Sequence record: ON528738
Strand: one strand, 5' to 3'
Source of the DNA: Shigella phage ESh28
DNA: 64,000 nt
Part shown: one piece after another, positions 17,943 to 62,097 of the stretch
How the letters are laid out: each line of letters starts with the position of its first letter
Numbering within the stretch: position 1 is the first letter of the stretch
Program-made: the position numbers and the translations under genes
The notes under the pieces: model-generated
Told to the model about the DNA's origin: nothing
Seen by the model: only the letters and a program-made list of their open reading frames with translations
The model's database searches: none

Positions 17943-17967
17943 GGGGACCCTAGAGGTCCCCTTTTTT
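17943..17967 (+). terminator. intrinsic terminator after gene 32
   Basis: GGGGACC-CTAGA-GGTCCCC followed by TTTTTT. Confidence 0.75.
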
Positions 17968-17992
17968 ATTTCAAAAATTTTTTCACAAAACG

Positions 17993-18022
17993 GTTTACAC
18001 CCTTGTCCTTCCATGGTACTAT
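17993..18022 (+). promoter_or_regulatory. early-type promoter (-35 GTTTAC, -10 TACTAT)
   Basis: GTTTAC 17993-17998, TACTAT 18017-18022; flanks near-identical to 1301-1360. Confidence 0.55.
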
Positions 18023-18065
18023 ACAACTATCGGCAATACTGCTGATGATTAAAGAAGAAAATAAT

Positions 18066-18703: not shown

Positions 18704-18737
18704 TTTACAGAAGGGTAGTAGTGTGATACTATTACCC
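18704..18737 (+). promoter_or_regulatory. early-type promoter with -10 enclosed by an inverted repeat
   Basis: GTTTAC 18704-18709; TACTAT 18727-18732; inverted repeat GGGTAGT(18713-19)/ATTACCC(18731-37). Confidence 0.45.
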
Positions 18738-18841
18738 TATCAAAACTAATGGAGAAAAGAAAATGTTCGCACCTTATATTATGGCAGCAGTTATGTTGGT
18801 CTGTTTATATCTTTTGATTAAAGCTTGCTAAGGAGAATAAA

Positions 18842-25416: not shown

Positions 25417-27004
<1,588 letters not shown>

Positions 27005-27007
27005 GCT

Positions 27008-27063
27008 GTTTACAAGTCCCTCGTGTTGTGTTACAGTAGTCTTACTGACATAACATGAGGACT
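27008..27063 (+). promoter_or_regulatory. early-type promoter embedded in an SD-sequestering hairpin, upstream of alc (copy A)
   Basis: GTTTAC 27008-27013; -10-like TACAGT 27033-27038; inverted repeat AGTCCCTCGTGTT(27015-27)/AACATGAGGACT(27052-63) includes SD GAGGA. Confidence 0.5.
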
Positions 27064-27065
27064 TT

Positions 27066-27572
27066 ATGATGGATTTGCAGCTAATTACTACTGAAATGGT
27101 CGTTGAAGCATACGGTGATACTACAGATGGGATTTCTGTATTTAAAGGAAACCGTCGAGTTGGATATATCACCGATCTTAAGAAAGATTTAGCTAAGCAA
27201 GTCAAGCGGAAAACGACCATTAAAGAATATCGAAATCGTCGTCTTGAGCAAGCCCGTGATATGCTTCCTGATGCGGTTGAAGAGATGAAAGTCTTTTTAG
27301 AAAATCAGCTTGCGAAATATGATTGTGATGTATTTATTAATCAGACTCAACCTAATGTTCATATCAATAGTTGTAAATGCTATATCATCGTTAATCCTTT
27401 GACTGGAAAGCATCGTCTTGGAATTAGTAATCCAAATCGTAGTGCATCGGATATGGCAGAAGATGTTGAGGCATGCTTTAAAATTTCTAAATCTCCAGCT
27501 GAACATCATATTTTAATTAACGGTCTTTCTCAAGACGATATTATAGAGGTTATTAAAACTTTATGCATGTAA
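27066..27572 (+). CDS. alc: Alc, inhibitor of host transcription
   Basis: 168 aa (MMDLQLITTEMVVEAYGD...); true start may be second ATG at 27069. Confidence 0.8.
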   Translation: MMDLQLITTEMVVEAYGDTTDGISVFKGNRRVGYITDLKKDLAKQVKRKTTIKEYRNRRLEQARDMLPDAVEEMKVFLENQLAKYDCDVFINQTQPNVHINSCKCYIIVNPLTGKHRLGISNPNRSASDMAEDVEACFKISKSPAEHHILINGLSQDDIIEVIKTLCM

Positions 27573-30307: not shown

Positions 30308-30308
30308 A

Positions 30309-30347
30309 GTTTACTTTACGGTAGAGTTGTGATATTATAGCTCTACC
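30309..30347 (+). promoter_or_regulatory. early-type promoter with -10 enclosed by an inverted repeat
   Basis: GTTTAC 30309-30314; TATTAT 30333-30338; inverted repeat GGTAGAG(30320-26)/CTCTACC(30341-47). Confidence 0.45.
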
Positions 30348-30368
30348 AAAACAAACGAGGAAATTGAA

Positions 30369-30896
30369 ATGAGCGAATGGTTTGAAGAAGATAAGGTTTA
30401 TCGCTTTAAAACTGGGTATAAAGATATTTTTAATGAAACTTGCGGGGCTAATAAACGAATTGCCCAGTTTATTGGGGAAAATTCATTTAAAGTAAAAATA
30501 GATCCTGCGAAAAATGTTATTAGCATTAAACGTGAAATTGATGATTGTTGGTATAAAGCTGTTGATGTAATGGGTGAATCCTATAAAGTTAGCCCGTTAT
30601 TTTCAATTGCTTATATGTTAGAATATTCTTTTTTCGAAGAAGTTCAAAAAGATGATTCTGTAAGTAAATTTGAAATTAAAACTGATAAAGAAATTAAGTG
30701 GAAAGTAGTAGGTATTACTGGTTGTATGTTCTATATCTATGCTCAAACTGATACGAAGGAAGAAGCTAAAAAGAAAGCTCTAGAATATCTTGAAGAGCAT
30801 GAAGAAGGTCCGGTAATGATTACCCAAGATGCTGAATTAGTTTCTGTCAAATTAGTTAAAAATGTTGAAAGTAAGGAGCTAGGATCAACATGCTAA
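30369..30896 (+). CDS. hypothetical protein (175 aa)
   Basis: ATG with GAGGA SD; preceded by promoter-in-hairpin element. Confidence 0.5.
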   Translation: MSEWFEEDKVYRFKTGYKDIFNETCGANKRIAQFIGENSFKVKIDPAKNVISIKREIDDCWYKAVDVMGESYKVSPLFSIAYMLEYSFFEEVQKDDSVSKFEIKTDKEIKWKVVGITGCMFYIYAQTDTKEEAKKKALEYLEEHEEGPVMITQDAELVSVKLVKNVESKELGSTC

Positions 30897-33826: not shown

Positions 33827-33850
33827 ATTTTCCAAAGATTGCATAAAGTT

Positions 33851-33880
33851 GTTTACAGTATGGTTCCTTTGTGATAGTAT
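33851..33880 (+). promoter_or_regulatory. early-type promoter
   Basis: GTTTAC 33851-33856; -10-like TAGTAT 33875-33880; imperfect inverted repeat TCCTTTGTG/CACAAACAAAGGA reaches the SD. Confidence 0.45.
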
Positions 33881-33907
33881 TATCTTACACAAACAAAGGA
33901 GAATAAA

Positions 33908-34240
33908 ATGAAAACGATTAATCTGAACGCTGCAGTTAAAACTAAATGCTTCAATGGTAAATATGATGAAACTATGTGGTTCTTAATGGCAGTTGAAGGT
34001 GATATTATTGAAGTAGAAACAACAGAAGGTATGGGAACAGATTTCACCTTTACAATTCAAGTTCATAATTTCTTTACTGGTTGGATTTATGAATTGAATA
34101 CAGTAATCGTTGGAAAAATTGAACAAAATGAATTAGGTGAATGGTATTATGTTACAGCTCGCCAACGTGCCGAACGCTTAATTGAGAAGATGAAAAAAGT
34201 TGGTAAACTTGACATGCAGCATTGGAAAGTAGTAAAATAA
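33908..34240 (+). CDS. hypothetical protein (110 aa)
   Basis: ATG with AAGGAG SD. Confidence 0.5.
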   Translation: MKTINLNAAVKTKCFNGKYDETMWFLMAVEGDIIEVETTEGMGTDFTFTIQVHNFFTGWIYELNTVIVGKIEQNELGEWYYVTARQRAERLIEKMKKVGKLDMQHWKVVK

Positions 34241-34242
34241 TT

Positions 34243-34282
34243 GTTTACTTTGGTACAGGATATGATATTATATACCTGTACC
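34243..34282 (+). promoter_or_regulatory. early-type promoter with -10 enclosed by a perfect 8-bp inverted repeat
   Basis: GTTTAC 34243-34248; TATTAT 34266-34271; GGTACAGG(34252-59)/CCTGTACC(34275-82). Confidence 0.5.
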
Positions 34283-34308
34283 GCAATTAAACATCTCGGA
34301 GAATAAAA

Positions 34309-34674
34309 ATGAACTACATCAACTTTGAGCGTAAATATGTTTCTAATGGTATTGCAGGTTCTATTGATACTATCTGCCTTTGGAAACATCAAAATGGATC
34401 AGTATGCGAAATTGAACAGTATATGACTCCTAACTACGTTTATATGCGATTTGAAAATGGCATCACGGTTTCAATCACAATGGAAGGTTCCAACTTCAAA
34501 ATCGCTCTGGATGATGATTTTCGTCAACGCGATTTAGGGACCCATCCTTGCTGGAATGGCGCTAATCGTAAGCTTCTGGTTAAAACTTGGATTCGTCATA
34601 TTTTGAGTAACAGAGCTAAACCTGAGCATCTTGAAGCAATCTTTGATGTAGTTCTCAACGAATTTGATATTTAA
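34309..34674 (+). CDS. hypothetical protein (121 aa)
   Basis: ATG with GGAG SD. Confidence 0.5.
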   Translation: MNYINFERKYVSNGIAGSIDTICLWKHQNGSVCEIEQYMTPNYVYMRFENGITVSITMEGSNFKIALDDDFRQRDLGTHPCWNGANRKLLVKTWIRHILSNRAKPEHLEAIFDVVLNEFDI

Positions 34675-38415: not shown

Positions 38416-38600
38416 AAGCTTACTTAGAAACAATTGTCATTGCTCAAAAAGAAGGTGGAGATGTTTCTACTTCTGTATCACAAGTCATTCTCGAATTTGT
38501 AGATGCATATGCTTACAATAAATTTACAGAAACATTTGATGCCTATGAAAAAGGTCCAAAGTTTGAAATATACCGTACTCTCTTACCACTAGATTACTAA
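38412..38600 (+). CDS. hypothetical protein (62 aa)
   Basis: ATG overlapping ligase stop. Confidence 0.4.
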   Translation: MKAYLETIVIAQKEGGDVSTSVSQVILEFVDAYAYNKFTETFDAYEKGPKFEIYRTLLPLDY

Positions 38601-38616
38601 AGGCCTTCGGGCCTTT
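38599..38616 (+). terminator. UUCG-tetraloop hairpin, weak terminator
   Basis: AAAGGCC-TTCG-GGCCTTT followed by AATTTTA. Confidence 0.5.
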
Positions 38617-38621
38617 AATTT

Positions 38622-38629
38622 TATAAATA
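38622..38629 (+). promoter_or_regulatory. late promoter (TATAAATA) for alt
   Basis: Exact TATAAATA 21 nt upstream of alt ATG. Confidence 0.7.
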
Positions 38630-40749: not shown

Positions 40750-42807
40750 ATGGAACTTATTACAGAATTATTTGACGGCGCTTCGGCGCCGGTTGTTAAC
40801 TTAAATCCTAAGCATAAAATACCACAAATTTTTGCTATTCAAGCCGGTGAAGAAAGCGTTCTTCCTGGATTTAGATTTTGTACATACACCTCTGGCGGTG
40901 ATACGAATAAAAACGTTAAGCCAGGCGACAAAATGATGCATATCGTAATGATAGGTGTTAATGAAAAATTATCATTAGTTAAGCTTAAAAACTTGGGTGG
41001 AAATCCAATTGGCGTCATTAATGCTGTTTTTGATACTGCTCTTCAAACAATGAAACAGTATAAAATTGATGCATGCCTATTCCGCGTACTAAAAAGTAAA
41101 ACAAATGGCGCTGCTCGTCAAATGCAAGTTATTGCTGACCGTTTAGTACGTACTAAAGGAGCAGGTCGATATGTTCTTTTAAAGGAAATCTGGGACTATG
41201 ATAAGAAATATGCATATATTATGGTTTACCGTAAAAATGCCAATTTAGAAGACATTCCAGGTGTACCTCCTATTTCAACTGAGTTATTCACAAAAGTTGA
41301 ATCGAAAGTCGGTGATGTTTATGTAGATGTTAAAACAGGTAATGCTGTTCCTAAAGCTGTTGCTGTTGCTGCTTCTATTGCTTTAGAAAATGATAAGCGC
41401 ACGGACCAAGCTGTTATTCAGAAAACTAAAATTAGTCGTCGATTAGCAGCACAAGCTCAATATTCTACTGTTGATGCTTCACTTCAGGGTGATAGCTTCG
41501 CTGCTAAGAAATATCAAGAGTTTGAATCTAAAGTTCCGGTGTATAAAGCAGAAGGACCAATGAACTCTGGCGTTATTCAAATTGGTTCAAACTTCAGCAA
41601 AGGAGCTATAGGCGGTATGAGAAGCGCTTCTCGTTTTAAATCTAGTGATTATGAACTCGAAAGCTTCCGAAATCATATTGCATTAGCCCATGCACGTTTA
41701 CGTGATCCATCTATCAAGTTACAGAGCGATATAACATATCAAGGTTCTCAAGAATATTTAAAGAATAAAGAATTCTTTGATTATAAGACTGATAAAATTT
41801 TAAGCGATCTTGCTGATATTAATATTTCTAATAGCTTTGATGTTATTAAGAAAATTATCAATGATTTGGTTAAAGGTTCTAAAGCTACGCCAGATGAAAA
41901 GACAGCTATTATTCAATTTGTCATGAATGGCATTTATAAATTGATTAATGAATCTGCTGCTCAGGCATATGAATACGCAAGCACTGAAGTAACTCCAAAA
42001 GGATTAACTCAAGCTGAATCTGATGTAATTGAAGATTATTGTGCAGATTCATATGTTGAAATGAACTCGTTCCTTTTGGGTAAACCAGATTCTACCCGTG
42101 AAGAATATATGGAACGAGCTATTAAACATATTGAGACGCTTGATTCTGCATTCGCTAAAGGTTCAGTTCTTCCTCCAGGAACTACACTTTACCGTGGACA
42201 AGAAGTTACCTTTAAAACTTTGCGTCATAACATTGAAAATAAAATGTTCTATTTCAAGAACTTCGTATCGACATCACTTAAACCAAATATATTCGGTGAG
42301 CATGGTAAAAACTATATGGCTCTAGATGATTCCGGCGCAGTATTTTCTGGCGAAGGAGAAGGTTCTGTTGATGCAGAAGATTTGATGCATATGGGTAGTC
42401 ATTCTACATATGCTAATGAAGATGCTGAAACTAGCGTGGGTATGGTAATTAAAGGAGCTGAGCGAATTAAAGTTATCGTTCCGGGTCATTTATCAGGATT
42501 TCCATCAGAAGCTGAAGTTATTCTACCGCGTGGAATTTTACTGAAGATTAATAAAGTAAGTACTTACTTTATGAAAGAAACTGCTTATAACAAGTATCTA
42601 ATCGAAGGTACAATCGTTCCTCCTTCTGAACAATTAGAGGAATCAGTATATGATGGCGACCATCTAATGGAAACTGGTGAAGTTCGTCCAATGACTGGAT
42701 TTAATCAATTCCTTGTCGAAGAATCAAAAGAAGAGGAAAACGAAGTTTCTCAAATCTTAGCTTCTTTGGTTAACATTAACGGAATGTCTAAAAAGTTCAA
42801 AATGTAG
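40750..42807 (+). CDS. Alt-like ADP-ribosyltransferase paralogue (second tandem copy)
   Basis: 685 aa; N-terminal ~230 aa roughly two-thirds identical to upstream Alt by eye; diverged middle; same ART elements (YRGQ, FVSTSL, EAEVILPRG). Confidence 0.75.
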   Translation: MELITELFDGASAPVVNLNPKHKIPQIFAIQAGEESVLPGFRFCTYTSGGDTNKNVKPGDKMMHIVMIGVNEKLSLVKLKNLGGNPIGVINAVFDTALQTMKQYKIDACLFRVLKSKTNGAARQMQVIADRLVRTKGAGRYVLLKEIWDYDKKYAYIMVYRKNANLEDIPGVPPISTELFTKVESKVGDVYVDVKTGNAVPKAVAVAASIALENDKRTDQAVIQKTKISRRLAAQAQYSTVDASLQGDSFAAKKYQEFESKVPVYKAEGPMNSGVIQIGSNFSKGAIGGMRSASRFKSSDYELESFRNHIALAHARLRDPSIKLQSDITYQGSQEYLKNKEFFDYKTDKILSDLADINISNSFDVIKKIINDLVKGSKATPDEKTAIIQFVMNGIYKLINESAAQAYEYASTEVTPKGLTQAESDVIEDYCADSYVEMNSFLLGKPDSTREEYMERAIKHIETLDSAFAKGSVLPPGTTLYRGQEVTFKTLRHNIENKMFYFKNFVSTSLKPNIFGEHGKNYMALDDSGAVFSGEGEGSVDAEDLMHMGSHSTYANEDAETSVGMVIKGAERIKVIVPGHLSGFPSEAEVILPRGILLKINKVSTYFMKETAYNKYLIEGTIVPPSEQLEESVYDGDHLMETGEVRPMTGFNQFLVEESKEEENEVSQILASLVNINGMSKKFKM

Positions 42808-42862
42808 TTTACAAGTCCCTCATGTTGTGTTATAGTAGTCTTACTGACATAACATGAGGAAC
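42807..42862 (+). promoter_or_regulatory. early-type promoter embedded in an SD-sequestering hairpin (copy B, near-identical to 27008-27063)
   Basis: GTTTAC 42807-42812; TATAGT 42831-42836; inverted repeat CCTCATGTT(42818-26)/AACATGAGG(42851-59) includes SD GAGGA. Confidence 0.5.
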
Positions 42863-42867
42863 ACAAA

Positions 42868-43158
42868 ATGAAATCTTCTTTGCGCTTTTTAGGTCAAGAA
42901 CTCGTCGTTGAAGGCGTTATTCCCGCTGATAACGCTTTCAATGAAGCAGTTTACGATGAATTTATCAAAATTTTTGGAACAGATAAAAAGTTCGGAATTT
43001 TTCCTTCTGAAAATTTTTCAAAGCCAGAACAGACTGAAAGTATTTTTCAGGGTGTAGTAACAGGTAAATTTGAGTCAGAAGCTCCGGTAAAAATTGAGGT
43101 TTATATTGAAGAAACCTCTGTTGCTTCAGTTGCTGCTTTTATTTCATTCCGTAAATAA
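42868..43158 (+). CDS. hypothetical protein (96 aa)
   Basis: ATG with GAGGA SD; preceded by promoter-in-hairpin element. Confidence 0.45.
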   Translation: MKSSLRFLGQELVVEGVIPADNAFNEAVYDEFIKIFGTDKKFGIFPSENFSKPEQTESIFQGVVTGKFESEAPVKIEVYIEETSVASVAAFISFRK

Positions 43159-43162
43159 AAAC

Positions 43163-43184
43163 ATGGGGACCTTTCGGTCCCCAT
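43163..43184. terminator. bidirectional terminator between convergent ORF 42868-43158 and gene 54
   Basis: ATGGGGACC-TTTC-GGTCCCCAT perfect 9-bp stem. Confidence 0.6.
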
Positions 43185-43186
43185 TG

Positions 43187-44152
43187 TTATATTGCTCCTA
43201 ATATTTTACTTTGCGAGTTGACAATTCCTGTCATAGTATTAATATTTGAAATGCTTCCTGCAGTTCCCCCTAATCTACTAAGTCGTGAAAGCGAATTAGA
43301 TAGTCCAGTAACACCTCCACTATTTCCGAGAACGCTTTGAATACCATTTATAGTAGCAGATTCAAGCCATTCAAGGGCAGCTTGTCTATCAACTGCTCCA
43401 GCCTGCATGACTCTATAAGCGAAAGTAACATCAAATGTAGTTATTTGGTTATCTCCATCATATGATAACTCAGGAGCACTCACAGATATTGGAATACAGC
43501 CAGTGAACATCACCGCAGTATGTGGTAATCCATTGCGAGAATGAAGATTAACCTGAATATCTGCCTCGACATCTTGTGGTAAAGCACGCAATCCAGTTAC
43601 TGGGTCTTGAACAGCGTTAACCCAGTCTTGCATTGCACGATAGTTACAAGCTTCTGAATCCATTCTAAATGAAATAACCAAAGGGTCTAATTCTCTCCCA
43701 GTTATACGAATATTAGGAGAGTTGTAGTTCCAGTCAGTTTCATAGGATAATCTATTCTCTGGCATTTTTACAGAGTATATCATCAATCCAGATGAGTTAT
43801 ATGCCATGTTAAAGAAGTCAATTAAATATGTACCAACTGTAAATGAGCCTAATAAACTTTGAACTGTACGTTGACTCATGGCACCAATAAGATATTTACT
43901 AACCCCTGATTTTCTTATCAGTTTTTGTGTGCCAGCTGTAATTAGCGTGGTAATTCCCTGATTAATATCACCTTGAGTTAATCCTAGCCAATCTGAACTT
44001 AGGCCCAAGTTATTATAAGAAAAGTTGCTAATTGAACTTATCAACGAAGAGCTTTTAGTTGATGGAGTTGTTGCAAAAACGCAGCTAAACATATTATTAC
44101 GTTGGAAATCTGCGTTTATTGCTTGATTATTAAATTCCTCTAAAGAATACAT
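43187..44152 (-). CDS. 54: gp54 baseplate tail-tube initiator
   Basis: 321 aa; synteny 54-48-29; recalled T4 gp54. Confidence 0.85.
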   Translation of the reverse strand: MYSLEEFNNQAINADFQRNNMFSCVFATTPSTKSSSLISSISNFSYNNLGLSSDWLGLTQGDINQGITTLITAGTQKLIRKSGVSKYLIGAMSQRTVQSLLGSFTVGTYLIDFFNMAYNSSGLMIYSVKMPENRLSYETDWNYNSPNIRITGRELDPLVISFRMDSEACNYRAMQDWVNAVQDPVTGLRALPQDVEADIQVNLHSRNGLPHTAVMFTGCIPISVSAPELSYDGDNQITTFDVTFAYRVMQAGAVDRQAALEWLESATINGIQSVLGNSGGVTGLSNSLSRLSRLGGTAGSISNINTMTGIVNSQSKILGAI

Positions 44153-45246
44153 TAAAAAGTCCCCGCATATAAAGAAGCACGATTTAACGTGATAATTTCT
44201 CTCATAGTAATCTCAAGAGTAAATGTACTAGGGAGGTTTGGAGCAATAGCTAATCCGTTAAAATTACCATTCGGAGTTTTATCAAATCTAATACTTTGAA
44301 TTTGACACGGTCCAAACACTTCTGTTTTTCCGTCAAATTTAGAAGTTGCGCCAAAGTTTTTAACCATCCAAATTGTCGGGTTTGAAACTACAAGAACGTT
44401 AGTTAAACTCGATGTCATTTTCTCAAATAACGTCTTATTTTTAACTGCATCTTCTGGAGTTAATGGCTCAATAAAAGTAGAGCGATACCACTCATCTAGA
44501 TATCCTTTTATTTCAGCAGCATATTGAGATTTACCCGTTTCACCATAAGAAAAATAGTTAAAATATTGATAGATATTAATAATAGCCATTAAATCTTCTG
44601 TGGAACGTGGAGTCAAATCCCATGTAAACACTTTAGTTCTATTTTCAGCGCCACCATACATACTTCTGGCTGTCGTATAAATCTGTTCATTATTATCAGC
44701 CATTATACCTTGTGTTATACTTTCCAGTGCCCCAAATACTGCAGTTGAAGCAATATTACTTAGCACACCAGTAGCAGTACCTCCGCCTCTACTGATAAGG
44801 CTTTCTTGAACATCGTTAAATCTATGCGATGATGTGTCAACATCAGATTTAGATCTCGGTAAAAGAATATTTGCAACAGGGGCTTTACTTATTGTTCCTG
44901 AATTATTATCTGATATTAATCCATTTGACAGTTTTGATACTGTATTACTGATAGTGTTTCTGGCTGTACGTAAAATACTCGAAGATGAAGAAGAGTAGTT
45001 AGATCTCATCGATCTAAGACTTCCAGAATCCCTAGATGACATATTGTATGCAGTAAATAATAATCCATTCTTATATAGATCTGTTACCTGGAAGTCCCCT
45101 GTAGTGTCATTACCACTAGCACGCCCAGTTGGAAACTGGGCTGTGTATGTTTTAGTTCCTACTTCTGATTTAGTACTCTGTCCGGCTGAAATTTTCTCAC
45201 CGGACTTTTTAATTAAATCAGCAGTTATTTCTTTAACAATTGCCAT
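44152..45246 (-). CDS. 48: gp48 baseplate tail-tube cap
   Basis: 364 aa (T4 gp48 length); synteny. Confidence 0.85.
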   Translation of the reverse strand: MAIVKEITADLIKKSGEKISAGQSTKSEVGTKTYTAQFPTGRASGNDTTGDFQVTDLYKNGLLFTAYNMSSRDSGSLRSMRSNYSSSSSSILRTARNTISNTVSKLSNGLISDNNSGTISKAPVANILLPRSKSDVDTSSHRFNDVQESLISRGGGTATGVLSNIASTAVFGALESITQGIMADNNEQIYTTARSMYGGAENRTKVFTWDLTPRSTEDLMAIINIYQYFNYFSYGETGKSQYAAEIKGYLDEWYRSTFIEPLTPEDAVKNKTLFEKMTSSLTNVLVVSNPTIWMVKNFGATSKFDGKTEVFGPCQIQSIRFDKTPNGNFNGLAIAPNLPSTFTLEITMREIITLNRASLYAGTF

Positions 45247-53964: not shown

Positions 53965-55383
53965 ATGACTTTTACAGTTGATATAACTCCTAAAACACCA
54001 ACGGGGGTTATTGATGAAACCAAGCAGTTTACTGCTGCACCCAGTGGTCAAACTGAAGGTGGAACTATTACCTATGCTTGGAGTGTAGATAATGTTCCAC
54101 AGGATGGAGCTGAAGCAACCTTTAATTATGTATTAAAAGGACCTGCTGGTCAAAAGACTATTAAAGTGGTTGCAACAAATACAGTTCCAGAAGCTGAAGC
54201 TGAAACAGCTGAAATTAGTACAACTATCACAGTTCAAAATAAGACACAGACAACTACCTTAGCTGTAACTCCTAATAGTCCTCCAGAAGGAGTAATCGGA
54301 ACAGCTGTTGAATTTACTGCTGCTTTAGCTTCGCAGCCATCGGGCGCAACTGCTACGTATCAATGGTACGTTGACGATTCTCCTGTGGGCGAAGCAACTT
54401 CTGCTACATTCAATTATACTCCTACTACAAGCGGAGTTAAAAAAATTAAGTGTGTAGCTCAAGTAACTGCTGATGATTATAATGCACTGAGCGTTACTTC
54501 TAATGAAGTATCATTGACGGTTAATAAAAAGACGCAGACAACTACATTGGCAGTAACTCCTGCTAGTCCTTCAGCTGGAGTAATTGGAACCCCAGTTCAA
54601 TTTACTGCTGCCTTAGCTTCTCAACCGTCTGGAGCGTCTGCTACGTATCAATGGTATGTAGATGACTCTCAAGTTAGTGGAGAAACTAACTCTACATTTA
54701 ACTATACTCCAACTACAAATGGAGTCAAAAGAATTAAATGCGTAGCCCAAGTAACTGCTGATGATTATAATGCAAAAGAAGTTACTTCCAATGAAGTATC
54801 ATTGACAGTTAATAAGAAGACAATGAATCCACAGGTTACATTGACTCCTCCTTCTATTAATGTTCAGCAAGATGCTTCGGCTACATTTACGGCTAATGTT
54901 ACGGATGCTCCAGAAGAAGCACAAATTACTTACTCGTGGAAGAAAGATTCTTCTCCTGTAGAAGGGTCAACTAACGTATATACTGTCGATACCTCATCTG
55001 TTGGAAGTCAAACTATTGAAGTTACTGCTGTCGTTGCAGCAACTGATTATGATAGCAAAACAGTTAAAACAACAGGTCAAGTTCAAGTGACTGATAAAGT
55101 TGCTCCTGAACCAGAAGGTGAATTACCTTATGTTCATCCTCTTCCACATCGTACTTCAGCTTACATCTGGTGCGGTTGGTGGGTTATGGATGAAATCCAA
55201 AAAATGACTGAAGAAGGTAAAGATTGGAAAACTGAAGATCCAGATAGTAAGTACTACTTGCATCGTTACACTCTTCAGAAGATGATGAAAGATTATCCAG
55301 AAGTTGATGTCCAAGAATCGCGTAATGGATACATCATTCACAAAACTGCTTTAGAAACTGGTATCATCTATACCTATCCATAA
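53965..55383 (+). CDS. hoc: Hoc highly immunogenic outer capsid protein with an extra Ig-like domain
   Basis: 472 aa vs 376 in T4 as recalled; MTFTVDITPKTPTGVIDETKQFTAAP; tandem near-duplicate ~96-aa Ig-like modules; conserved capsid-binding C-terminus. Confidence 0.85.
   Translation: MTFTVDITPKTPTGVIDETKQFTAAPSGQTEGGTITYAWSVDNVPQDGAEATFNYVLKGPAGQKTIKVVATNTVPEAEAETAEISTTITVQNKTQTTTLAVTPNSPPEGVIGTAVEFTAALASQPSGATATYQWYVDDSPVGEATSATFNYTPTTSGVKKIKCVAQVTADDYNALSVTSNEVSLTVNKKTQTTTLAVTPASPSAGVIGTPVQFTAALASQPSGASATYQWYVDDSQVSGETNSTFNYTPTTNGVKRIKCVAQVTADDYNAKEVTSNEVSLTVNKKTMNPQVTLTPPSINVQQDASATFTANVTDAPEEAQITYSWKKDSSPVEGSTNVYTVDTSSVGSQTIEVTAVVAATDYDSKTVKTTGQVQVTDKVAPEPEGELPYVHPLPHRTSAYIWCGWWVMDEIQKMTEEGKDWKTEDPDSKYYLHRYTLQKMMKDYPEVDVQESRNGYIIHKTALETGIIYTYP
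54238..54522 (+). repeat. hoc: hoc internal tandem repeat, copy 1 (one Ig-like domain)
   Basis: Encodes NKTQTTTLAVTPNSPPEGVIGTAVEFTAALASQPSGATATYQWYVDDSPVGEATSATFNYTPTTSGVKKIKCVAQVTADDYNALSVTSNEVSLTV. Confidence 0.8.
54523..54810 (+). repeat. hoc: hoc internal tandem repeat, copy 2
   Basis: Encodes NKKTQTTTLAVTPASPSAGVIGTPVQFTAALASQPSGASATYQWYVDDSQVSGETNSTFNYTPTTNGVKRIKCVAQVTADDYNAKEVTSNEVSLTV; high nucleotide similarity to copy 1 by eye. Confidence 0.8.
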
Positions 55384-61850: not shown

Positions 61851-62097
61851 TATTCATCATCCTCGTCTTCGTCATCTTCGTCAGAGTCTTTGTCTTTTTT
61901 ATCGTCTTTATCATCACCATCTTCGTCTTCGTCATCATCCTCGTCTTCAGGTTCTTCACCTTCGATTAAGAAATTACGAGCGATAGCGATTTTTTCTTCT
62001 TTAATTAAATCAATCGTTCTTGCAGCCATGGCTTCAGCAAATAATTTACGAGCGGCTACGAGGTCGTTTGATTTAATAGCTTCAATTAAACCTTCCA

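Follow-up and report, generated by a model that had tools for sequence, protein, structure and literature searches.

Two copies of a promoter-hairpin module in the ESh28 window

We analysed a stretch of 64,000 nucleotides (nt) from Shigella phage ESh28 (record ON528738), referred to here as the window, with a focus on a 54-nt module that combines an early promoter, a hairpin and a Shine-Dalgarno (SD) sequence. The window belongs to a Tequatrovirus (T4-like) genome, with about 97% identity to phages such as OE5505 in the region tested (41000-45000), and its plus strand runs in the direction of T4 early transcription. The module was found twice in the same orientation, at a distance of 15.8 kb: rnlA (gene 63) and alc flank copy A, and a second Alt paralogue and alt.-3 flank copy B (Table 1). 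The first base of copy B is also the last base of the TAG stop codon of the Alt paralogue; this copy precedes an open reading frame (ORF) of 96 amino acids (aa) and ends 7 nt before its ATG. Copy A bears a "promoter" annotation in the record of phage Lutter.

We then compared the two copies with each other and with the other promoters of the window. The results showed 52 identical positions out of 54 (2 mismatches) between unrelated flanks, the identity beginning exactly at the G of GTTTACA and stopping at GAGGA. When the 11 strong early promoters found in the window were compared in pairs over 54 nt, copies A and B shared 96% identity, the next-best pair 70% and the median pair 44%, indicating that their likeness far exceeds a shared promoter consensus. 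Chance similarity through that consensus was rejected on the same figures, and the likeness was not limited to the -35 and -10 hexamers. A search allowing up to 3 mismatches returned no copy in the window other than these two, with 0 expected from 100 shuffles. The initial annotation, which had described copy B as a near-identical second promoter-in-hairpin element placed directly after the Alt pair, was thus borne out.

Within the phage collection, the module was carried by 499 records, all of them Tequatrovirus, and occupied two places in every record listed. T4 itself has both copies, although its second Alt paralogue survives as the fragments alt.-1 and alt.-2. Pattern scans for further Tequatrovirus copies gave only 8 loci in IMG/VR and 7 in metagenome contigs.

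The SD sequence is predicted to pair with the promoter spacer

The module consists of G-TTTACA, a 17-nt spacer, TGT-TATAGT (TACAGT in copy A), 19 nt and GAGGA. Each copy is a predicted sigma-70-type early promoter, with the form TTTACA-17-TGnTATAGT in copy B, and its 14-bp hairpin is put at -23 to -26 kcal/mol. In the predicted RNA fold of copy B, the two arms form a stem of 14 base pairs (bp) with a small apical stem on top, and the GAGG of the SD sequence pairs with CCUC in the promoter spacer. In 81-nt contexts, the hairpin energy was -23.4 kcal/mol for copy B (z -4.7) and -29.1 kcal/mol for copy A (z -4.3), and no shuffle equalled the native sequence at either of these unrelated loci.

The 5' arm lies between the -35 and -10 elements and hence upstream of the predicted start, indicating that transcripts from the module's own promoter would lack it. 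Judged from the usual 7-nt distance, transcription from copy B would start at about 42843, in the apical part of the hairpin. RNAs beginning after the -10 element showed no significant structure (z +0.5 for a start at 42838 and +0.9 for the other copy).

Several known kinds of element were tried against the module and rejected. No U-run follows the stem in either copy (tails ACACAAAAUG and CUUUAUGAUG), so that the hairpin is not a classical terminator; the terminator scan called neither copy, and the same scan did call the site at 43163-43184. A late promoter within the hairpin was rejected because TATAAATA is absent from both modules. No Rfam covariance model matched at its gathering score anywhere in the window, with chance-level hits only, elsewhere in 42700-43250, and membership of any curated Rfam family was rejected on this ground. 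A RegB site was likewise rejected, no GGAG motif being seen in the module when the sequence was read by eye, without a dedicated search.

Stem variation within Tequatrovirus and compensating changes in other genera

Within the genus, we compared about 35 module copies. The pair 16-49 was found as A-U, G.U and G-C, and the variant hairpins ranged from -19.6 to -25.7 kcal/mol, with copy B of LF73P3 (-12.3 kcal/mol) as the sole exception. Several changes in B copies preserved or improved pairing, namely C15T and C11T in T2, T49C together with G16 in LH2, and G40A in T4. In total, 6 types of stem substitution were pair-preserving and 3 pair-breaking, a ratio that is not significant alone; the three pair-breaking ones were confined to B copies. 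Conservation of the module did not exceed that of the coding flanks, a comparison of low weight because divergent modules had been favoured in choosing the sample and a T4-type deletion is present in one flank. The within-genus evidence for selection on the hairpin is only suggestive and, since the substitution types were too few, the analysis was extended to other genera.

We gathered the rnlA-alc intergenic regions of 6 phage records and 41 IMG/VR loci, which gave 35 distinct sequences. In 25 of these 35, the bases right after TTTACA pair with the SD region of alc, forming 10 arm classes from several genera; the lineages include Kagamiyamavirus EcS1, the Klebsiella phages Mexia and Clarke_MM3, and LQ5. 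The arm pairs are unlike between classes and match within them, as in CCUCAUUUUGUUG/CAACAAAAUGAGG, UCUCCAUUUGG/CCAAAUGGAGA and CCUCAUCAG/CUGAUGAGG; further class-specific pairs are CCUCGUUUGUU/AACAAACGAGG, CCUCUCGUUUUUG/CAAAAACGAGAGG and others. Across classes the predicted hairpins of the alc cassette reached -17 to -26 kcal/mol (z -3 to -7).

In a plain MAFFT alignment of the alc cassettes, the 5' arms were in register and the 3' arms were not, owing to unequal loop lengths. We therefore used an alignment-free chimera test and a covariance-model alignment. When the 3' halves were swapped between lineages, the mean energy was -10.9 kcal/mol in the chimeras versus -20.1 kcal/mol in the native cassettes, and none of 20000 permutations reached the native mean. 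A covariance model built from non-Tequatrovirus alc cassettes only was then run on the window. It matched copy B with 35.5 bits (E 7e-6) and copy A with 29.9 bits; its other matches were at 33850-33910 (27.6 bits) and, weakly, at 30308-30369. In the model-guided alignment, which is fitted to the model and so biased towards the modelled structure, 91.6% of cells were paired versus 63.6% after shuffling, and double-sided changes were present in 14 of 14 pairs. These comparisons support selection on the hairpin structure at alc, the decisive evidence being the compensating changes in other genera. The cassette at alc is ancient.

Copy B as a Tequatrovirus-specific replacement

To place copy B, we looked at the alt/alt.-3 junction of five other genera (Dhakavirus, Mosigvirus, Marfavirus, Mosugukvirus and Kagamiyamavirus). 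The results showed an early promoter with its -35 element adjoining the stop codon, in a cassette that differs from the alc-type module in each of the five. Dhakavirus, Marfavirus and Kagamiyamavirus have a small hairpin of the CCACAAGGAUGUGG type between the boxes, the small hairpin of Mosigvirus is related, and Mosugukvirus lacks one at this place; pairing of the SD sequence with the spacer was found at this junction in none of the five. This difference indicates that the alc-type cassette at alt.-3 is a Tequatrovirus-specific replacement. On this distribution, copy B is a secondary copy that displaced the ancestral alt.-3 promoter cassette by recombination.

A two-site haplotype, TATAATAATC, was found at locus B in ZN18, HY01, T2 and others and at locus A in REP3, whose B copy carries TATAGTAGTT. 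Such shared haplotypes point to occasional sequence exchange between the two loci. The near-identity of copies A and B thus reflects recent copying and gene conversion, not base-by-base selection. Hence the initial proposal of a selected cassette holds for the architecture, which is kept with compensating stem changes in ten lineages, and is not supported by the identity of loops and arms between the two copies, which reflects common origin and exchange.

The alc promoter of Mosigvirus JM17 (TTTACAAACACCAAGGATGGTGATACTAT) resembles the alt.-3 promoters of Dhakavirus, Marfavirus and Kagamiyamavirus (TTTACAACACCACAAGGATGTGGTACTAT). It appears that, in the course of evolution, the alc and alt.-3 loci have exchanged promoter cassettes in both directions.

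Expression timing of the neighbouring genes

Time-resolved omics of T4 place alc and alt.-3 among genes with early RNA and early protein, rnlA among those with early RNA and late protein, and alt among the late genes (PMC9697503). In the window, a late promoter and a terminator-like hairpin precede alt, indicating that RNAs reaching copy B from upstream are mainly late. Because alt.-3, with its early RNA, lies directly 3' of a late alt, it needs an early promoter of its own, and the module fits this role. Upstream of rnlA, the promoter is inferred to be of the middle class, as read from its sequence by the published T4 definition (PMC2988021).

The initial annotation had proposed that the module separates an early gene from late read-through. 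This part of the proposal stands at copy B, where upstream transcription is late (TATAAATA at 38622), and not at copy A, where read-through, given the MotA-box promoter before rnlA, would be early or middle and not specifically late. Overall the idea of separation, for which the initial annotation named no mechanism, is partly supported and can be refined: since the hairpin contains the SD sequence, the separation is most likely translational.

Beyond the module, the two Alt (ADP-ribosyltransferase) paralogues of the window are both full-length and stand in tandem, as repeats about 2094 nt apart with 72-88% identity. In T4, only N-terminal remnants of the second paralogue are left (alt.-1 and alt.-2), and these run into its last codons at a junction some 20 nt upstream of the module.

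Table 1. Positions of the module copies, their parts and surrounding features in the 64,000-nt window
Feature	Position	Strand	Remarks
Module copy B	42807..42860	+	Early promoter, hairpin and SD sequence between the stop of the second Alt paralogue and alt.-3
Copy B, -35 hexamer TTTACA	42808..42813	+	Promoter scan 10/12 matches, 17-nt spacer
Copy B, extended -10 element, TGT + TATAGT	42828..42836	+	
Copy B, 5' arm CCUCAUGUUGUGUU	42818..42831	+	In promoter spacer; contains anti-SD CCUC; minimum-free-energy fold
Copy B, 3' arm GACAUAACAUGAGG	42846..42859	+	Includes most of the SD sequence GAGGA (42856-42860)
Module copy A	27008..27061	+	Between rnlA (gene 63) and alc
Copy A, -35 hexamer	27009..27014	+	
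Copy A, -10 element TACAGT	27032..27037	+	
Copy A, arms	27019..27032 and 27047..27060	+	
Copy A, SD sequence	27057..27061	+	
Second Alt paralogue, 685 aa	40750..42807	+	Stop TAG ends at 42807, the first base of copy B
alt.-3, 96 aa, DUF5498	42868..43158	+	Served by copy B; 97% identical to T4 Alt.-3
alt, 698 aa	38650..40746	+	First gene of the late unit reading towards copy B
Terminator-like hairpin, then late promoter TATAAATA	38598..38629	+	Hairpin 38598-38617, promoter 38622-38629; just upstream of alt
Bidirectional intrinsic terminator	43163..43184	.	Closes the alt.-3 unit against gene 54; terminator annotation in OE5505
alc, inhibitor of host transcription	27069..27572	+	Alternative ATG at 27066
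rnlA (gene 63)	25880..27004	+	Upstream of copy A
Middle-promoter-like site before rnlA	25828..25853	+	MotA-box TGCTTC 25828-25833; TGg + TACTAT 25845-25853
Third promoter-in-hairpin, upstream of gene 30.8 homologue	33850..33910	+	Predicted to pair its own SD sequence (CCUUUGU/ACAAAGG); -12.1 kcal/mol, z -2.1
Hairpins enclosing a -10 element, SD sequence outside the stem	18704..18765, 30310..30371, 34244..34311		z -3.5 to -5.5

Other promoters, hairpins and repeats in the window

A hairpin surrounds the -10 element in six of the window's 11 strong early promoters and is absent from five. Besides copies A and B, the promoter upstream of the gene 30.8 homologue pairs its own SD sequence in the predicted fold; its stem is unrelated in sequence to that of the alc module, and the alc-cassette model still matches it. 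In the remaining three (18704, 30310 and 34244) the -10 element is enclosed and the SD sequence is not. The promoter at 34244 serves gene 30.7, and the one at 30310 serves an ORF of 175 aa that has no match in T4 122.6-141.5 kb. These three sites hint at a hairpin function that is independent of the SD sequence, and are consistent with the published class of early-promoter stem-loop cassettes known as PeSLs.

A partial relative of the module, TATAGTAGTCCTACTGA-ACATGAGGAACACAAAATG, was seen at a third locus, in the ndd region of Mosigvirus phi25-307 (positions 1484-1543 of the sequence taken from that phage), where it lies upstream of a small ORF and its hairpin encloses the -10 box and not the SD sequence. 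The early promoters at 1287-1361 and 17957-18031 of the window, both without a hairpin, are 79% identical over 75 nt, and their likeness extends from the A/T-rich DNA upstream into the start of the transcribed sequence (TGGTACTATACAACTATC). Two further repeats were noted: a tandem duplication at 54229-54804 (family D1) with a 288-nt unit and copies 80% identical, and a cluster of short imperfect direct repeats of the TCATCATCCTCGTCTTCGTC type at 61854-61960 (family D3), which, if coding on the minus strand, would give an acidic low-complexity stretch.

Proposed function and alternative explanations

We propose that the cassette restricts translation of alc and alt.-3 to their own early transcripts and keeps read-through RNA silent, an explanation to which we give a probability of about 0.55. 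As DNA, the cassette would act as a strong early promoter for the host RNA polymerase (sigma-70). In an RNA started upstream, the spacer (the anti-SD CCUC and 10 more bases) would pair just before the start codon and bury the SD sequence GAGGA. Transcripts from the cassette's own promoter would start within the loop, without the 5' arm, and leave the SD sequence free. Both genes would thus be translated solely from their own immediate-early transcripts, and read-through would carry them silently, in late RNAs from alt at copy B and in early or middle RNAs through rnlA at copy A. The module's anatomy, the predicted fold, the covariation between lineages, the derived status of copy B and the expression classes in T4 are what the analysis shows; the exact transcription start, the formation of the hairpin in vivo and the translation block are parts that we infer. 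In its widest form, the proposal is an "origin-of-transcript gate" in Tevenvirinae, with the promoter spacer as anti-SD, by which Alc, in Tequatrovirus also Alt.-3, and possibly gp30.8 would never be made from middle or late read-through; we see an even chance that this holds.

Several observations weigh against this explanation. Occlusion of the SD sequence at alc is absent in about 8 lineages, including Mosigvirus and Gaprivervirus, and the model-guided alignment leans towards the structure it was built on. Within Tequatrovirus, the count of pair-preserving against pair-breaking changes carries little by itself; pair-breaking changes are tolerated in copy B of some phages, C12A in ZN18 and two C.A mismatches that weaken the hairpin in LF73P3, so that the constraint on the hairpin at the alt.-3 locus may be weak. 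Half of the six promoter hairpins of the window enclose the -10 element without the SD sequence, indicating that some promoter-hairpin function is independent of SD pairing. Finally, the literature searched contained no 5'-end mapping, structure probing or translation assay of these sites.

The main rival, which we consider unlikely, holds that the stem-loop is mainly an attenuator or terminator of upstream transcription and a recombination site, as has been proposed for PeSLs, and that its pairing with the SD sequence is incidental. The anatomy of the module fits published PeSLs, a PeSL stem-loop of RB49/phi1 lowered downstream lacZ about as much as a strong terminator (PMC2839356), and PeSLs are reported for the PST/T4 pair (PMC4122927). 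Cassette swaps are also visible (the replaced alt.-3 promoter, the alt.-3-like alc promoter of Mosigvirus and the occurrence of TATAATAATC at either locus), as are the three hairpins of the window that make no contact with an SD sequence. However, the hairpin has A-rich tails and is without a U-tract in every lineage, neither copy is called in the terminator scan, and attenuation leaves unexplained a 3' arm that is bound to the SD sequence and has compensating changes in ten lineages. As for recombination, the direct repeats flank essential genes, so that crossover would be lethal and gene conversion alone possible. A narrower alternative concerns copy B only, and supposes that the hairpin matters at alc and arrived at alt.-3 with a copied strong promoter, without a role there. 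Copy B is derived, the alt.-3 cassette differs in other genera, and all three pair-breaking substitutions fall in B copies; yet most B variants hold -19.6 to -24 kcal/mol, several of their changes preserve or improve pairing (T2, LH2 and T4), and the late alt unit runs straight into alt.-3, where a gate would be useful. We regard this as improbable.

Two other accounts start from the position of the hairpin behind the upstream gene. Ribosomes ending at the upstream stop might open the lowest pairs of the stem and free the SD sequence, so that downstream translation would be coupled and not blocked. Nearly all lineages do have the upstream stop overlapping or adjoining the -35 element (TAGTTTACA), 7-15 nt upstream of the anti-SD, but the compact intergenic space also imposes this closeness, and a ribosome that terminates there would, judged by the known ribosome footprint, open just the first few pairs of a 12-17-bp stem. 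The T4 proteome classes, with Alt.-3 early and Alt late, do not suggest coupling either, and we hold this account to be quite improbable. The least probable of the readings is that the hairpin shields the 3' ends of the rnlA and alt mRNAs from exonucleases or forms an RNase III-type processing site. A stable stem-loop does stand directly behind the upstream stop codons, and hairpins are common at the intergenic promoters of the window, but this account gives no reason why the 3' arm should be the SD sequence, no evidence of processing was seen, and the unit already ends in a canonical terminator behind alt.-3.

Alc turns off the transcription of the host, and when it acts is important for how T4 takes over the cell. 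If the proposal of translation gated by transcript origin is true, it shows a way for a densely packed phage genome to keep an immediate-early gene untranslated when longer middle or late RNAs carry it, and to do so without extra sequence, the spacer being reused as an anti-SD. The module would then stand as the early-only equivalent of the late-only switches known from T4, with a translational role, not recognised before, for the stem-loops in some PeSL cassettes; it would also help to explain the decoupling of RNA and protein timing of some genes in T4 omics. The 54-nt design could also serve as a synthetic part in which translation depends on the promoter of origin.

Comparison with known systems

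The ordinary early promoters of T4 (PMC2988021) share with the module the GTTTACA -35 element, the TGn extended -10 element and A-rich DNA upstream. They are unlike it in that 5 of the 11 in the window are free of hairpins, and in their lower mutual likeness, as given above for the median pair.

Hairpins that sequester a ribosome-binding site (RBS) and contain a late promoter are known from T4 e, soc, 49 and I-TevI, and have also been reported for I-TevII/III, mobE and segB; the hairpin of e lowers lysozyme synthesis 100-fold (PMC3014915). As in e, soc, 49 and I-TevI, the SD sequence of the module lies within a helix in RNA started upstream, here by prediction, with the pairing kept by covariation at alc. 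Transcripts from the internal promoter likewise lack the 5' strand and would be translatable, the start site being estimated here, and temporal gating of translation by transcript origin, shown for those genes, is proposed for the module. The difference is that their internal promoter is a late one (TATAAATA), making translation late-only, whereas the module has a sigma-70 early promoter and would form an immediate-early gate; in addition, the 5' arm of the module is its own promoter spacer. Neither alc nor alt.-3 is among the cases listed in a review of translational structures in T4 (PMC3014915), and no description of a hairpin at either gene was found in the literature searched.

In the two PeSL papers (Arbiol et al. 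2010; Comeau et al. 2014), the cassette is defined as an early promoter with a stem-loop mostly between the boxes or over the -10 box, followed by an SD sequence and ATG; PeSLs are repeated and recombinogenic, and the stem-loop is read as a terminator or attenuator and a recombination site (PMC2839356, PMC4122927). The words translation and ribosome are absent from the 2010 paper (PMC2839356). The module has a sigma-70-like early promoter in intergenic space with a spacing of about 17 nt, a 14-bp stem enclosing the -10 element, an upstream stop at its 5' end and an SD sequence with ATG at its 3' end, and it is repeated (two copies per genome) and exchanged between loci, all as in PeSLs. Copy B also matches the promoter consensus TTTACW...N17...TAYWAT that PMC4122927 gives for PST/T4 PeSLs. 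Unlike in PeSLs, the 3' arm of the module is the SD sequence, no U-tract follows the stem, and covariation across genera keeps the pairing at a single orthologous locus, alc. These comparisons indicate that the module is a variant of two known kinds of element, the PeSL cassette and the RBS-sequestering hairpin with an internal promoter.

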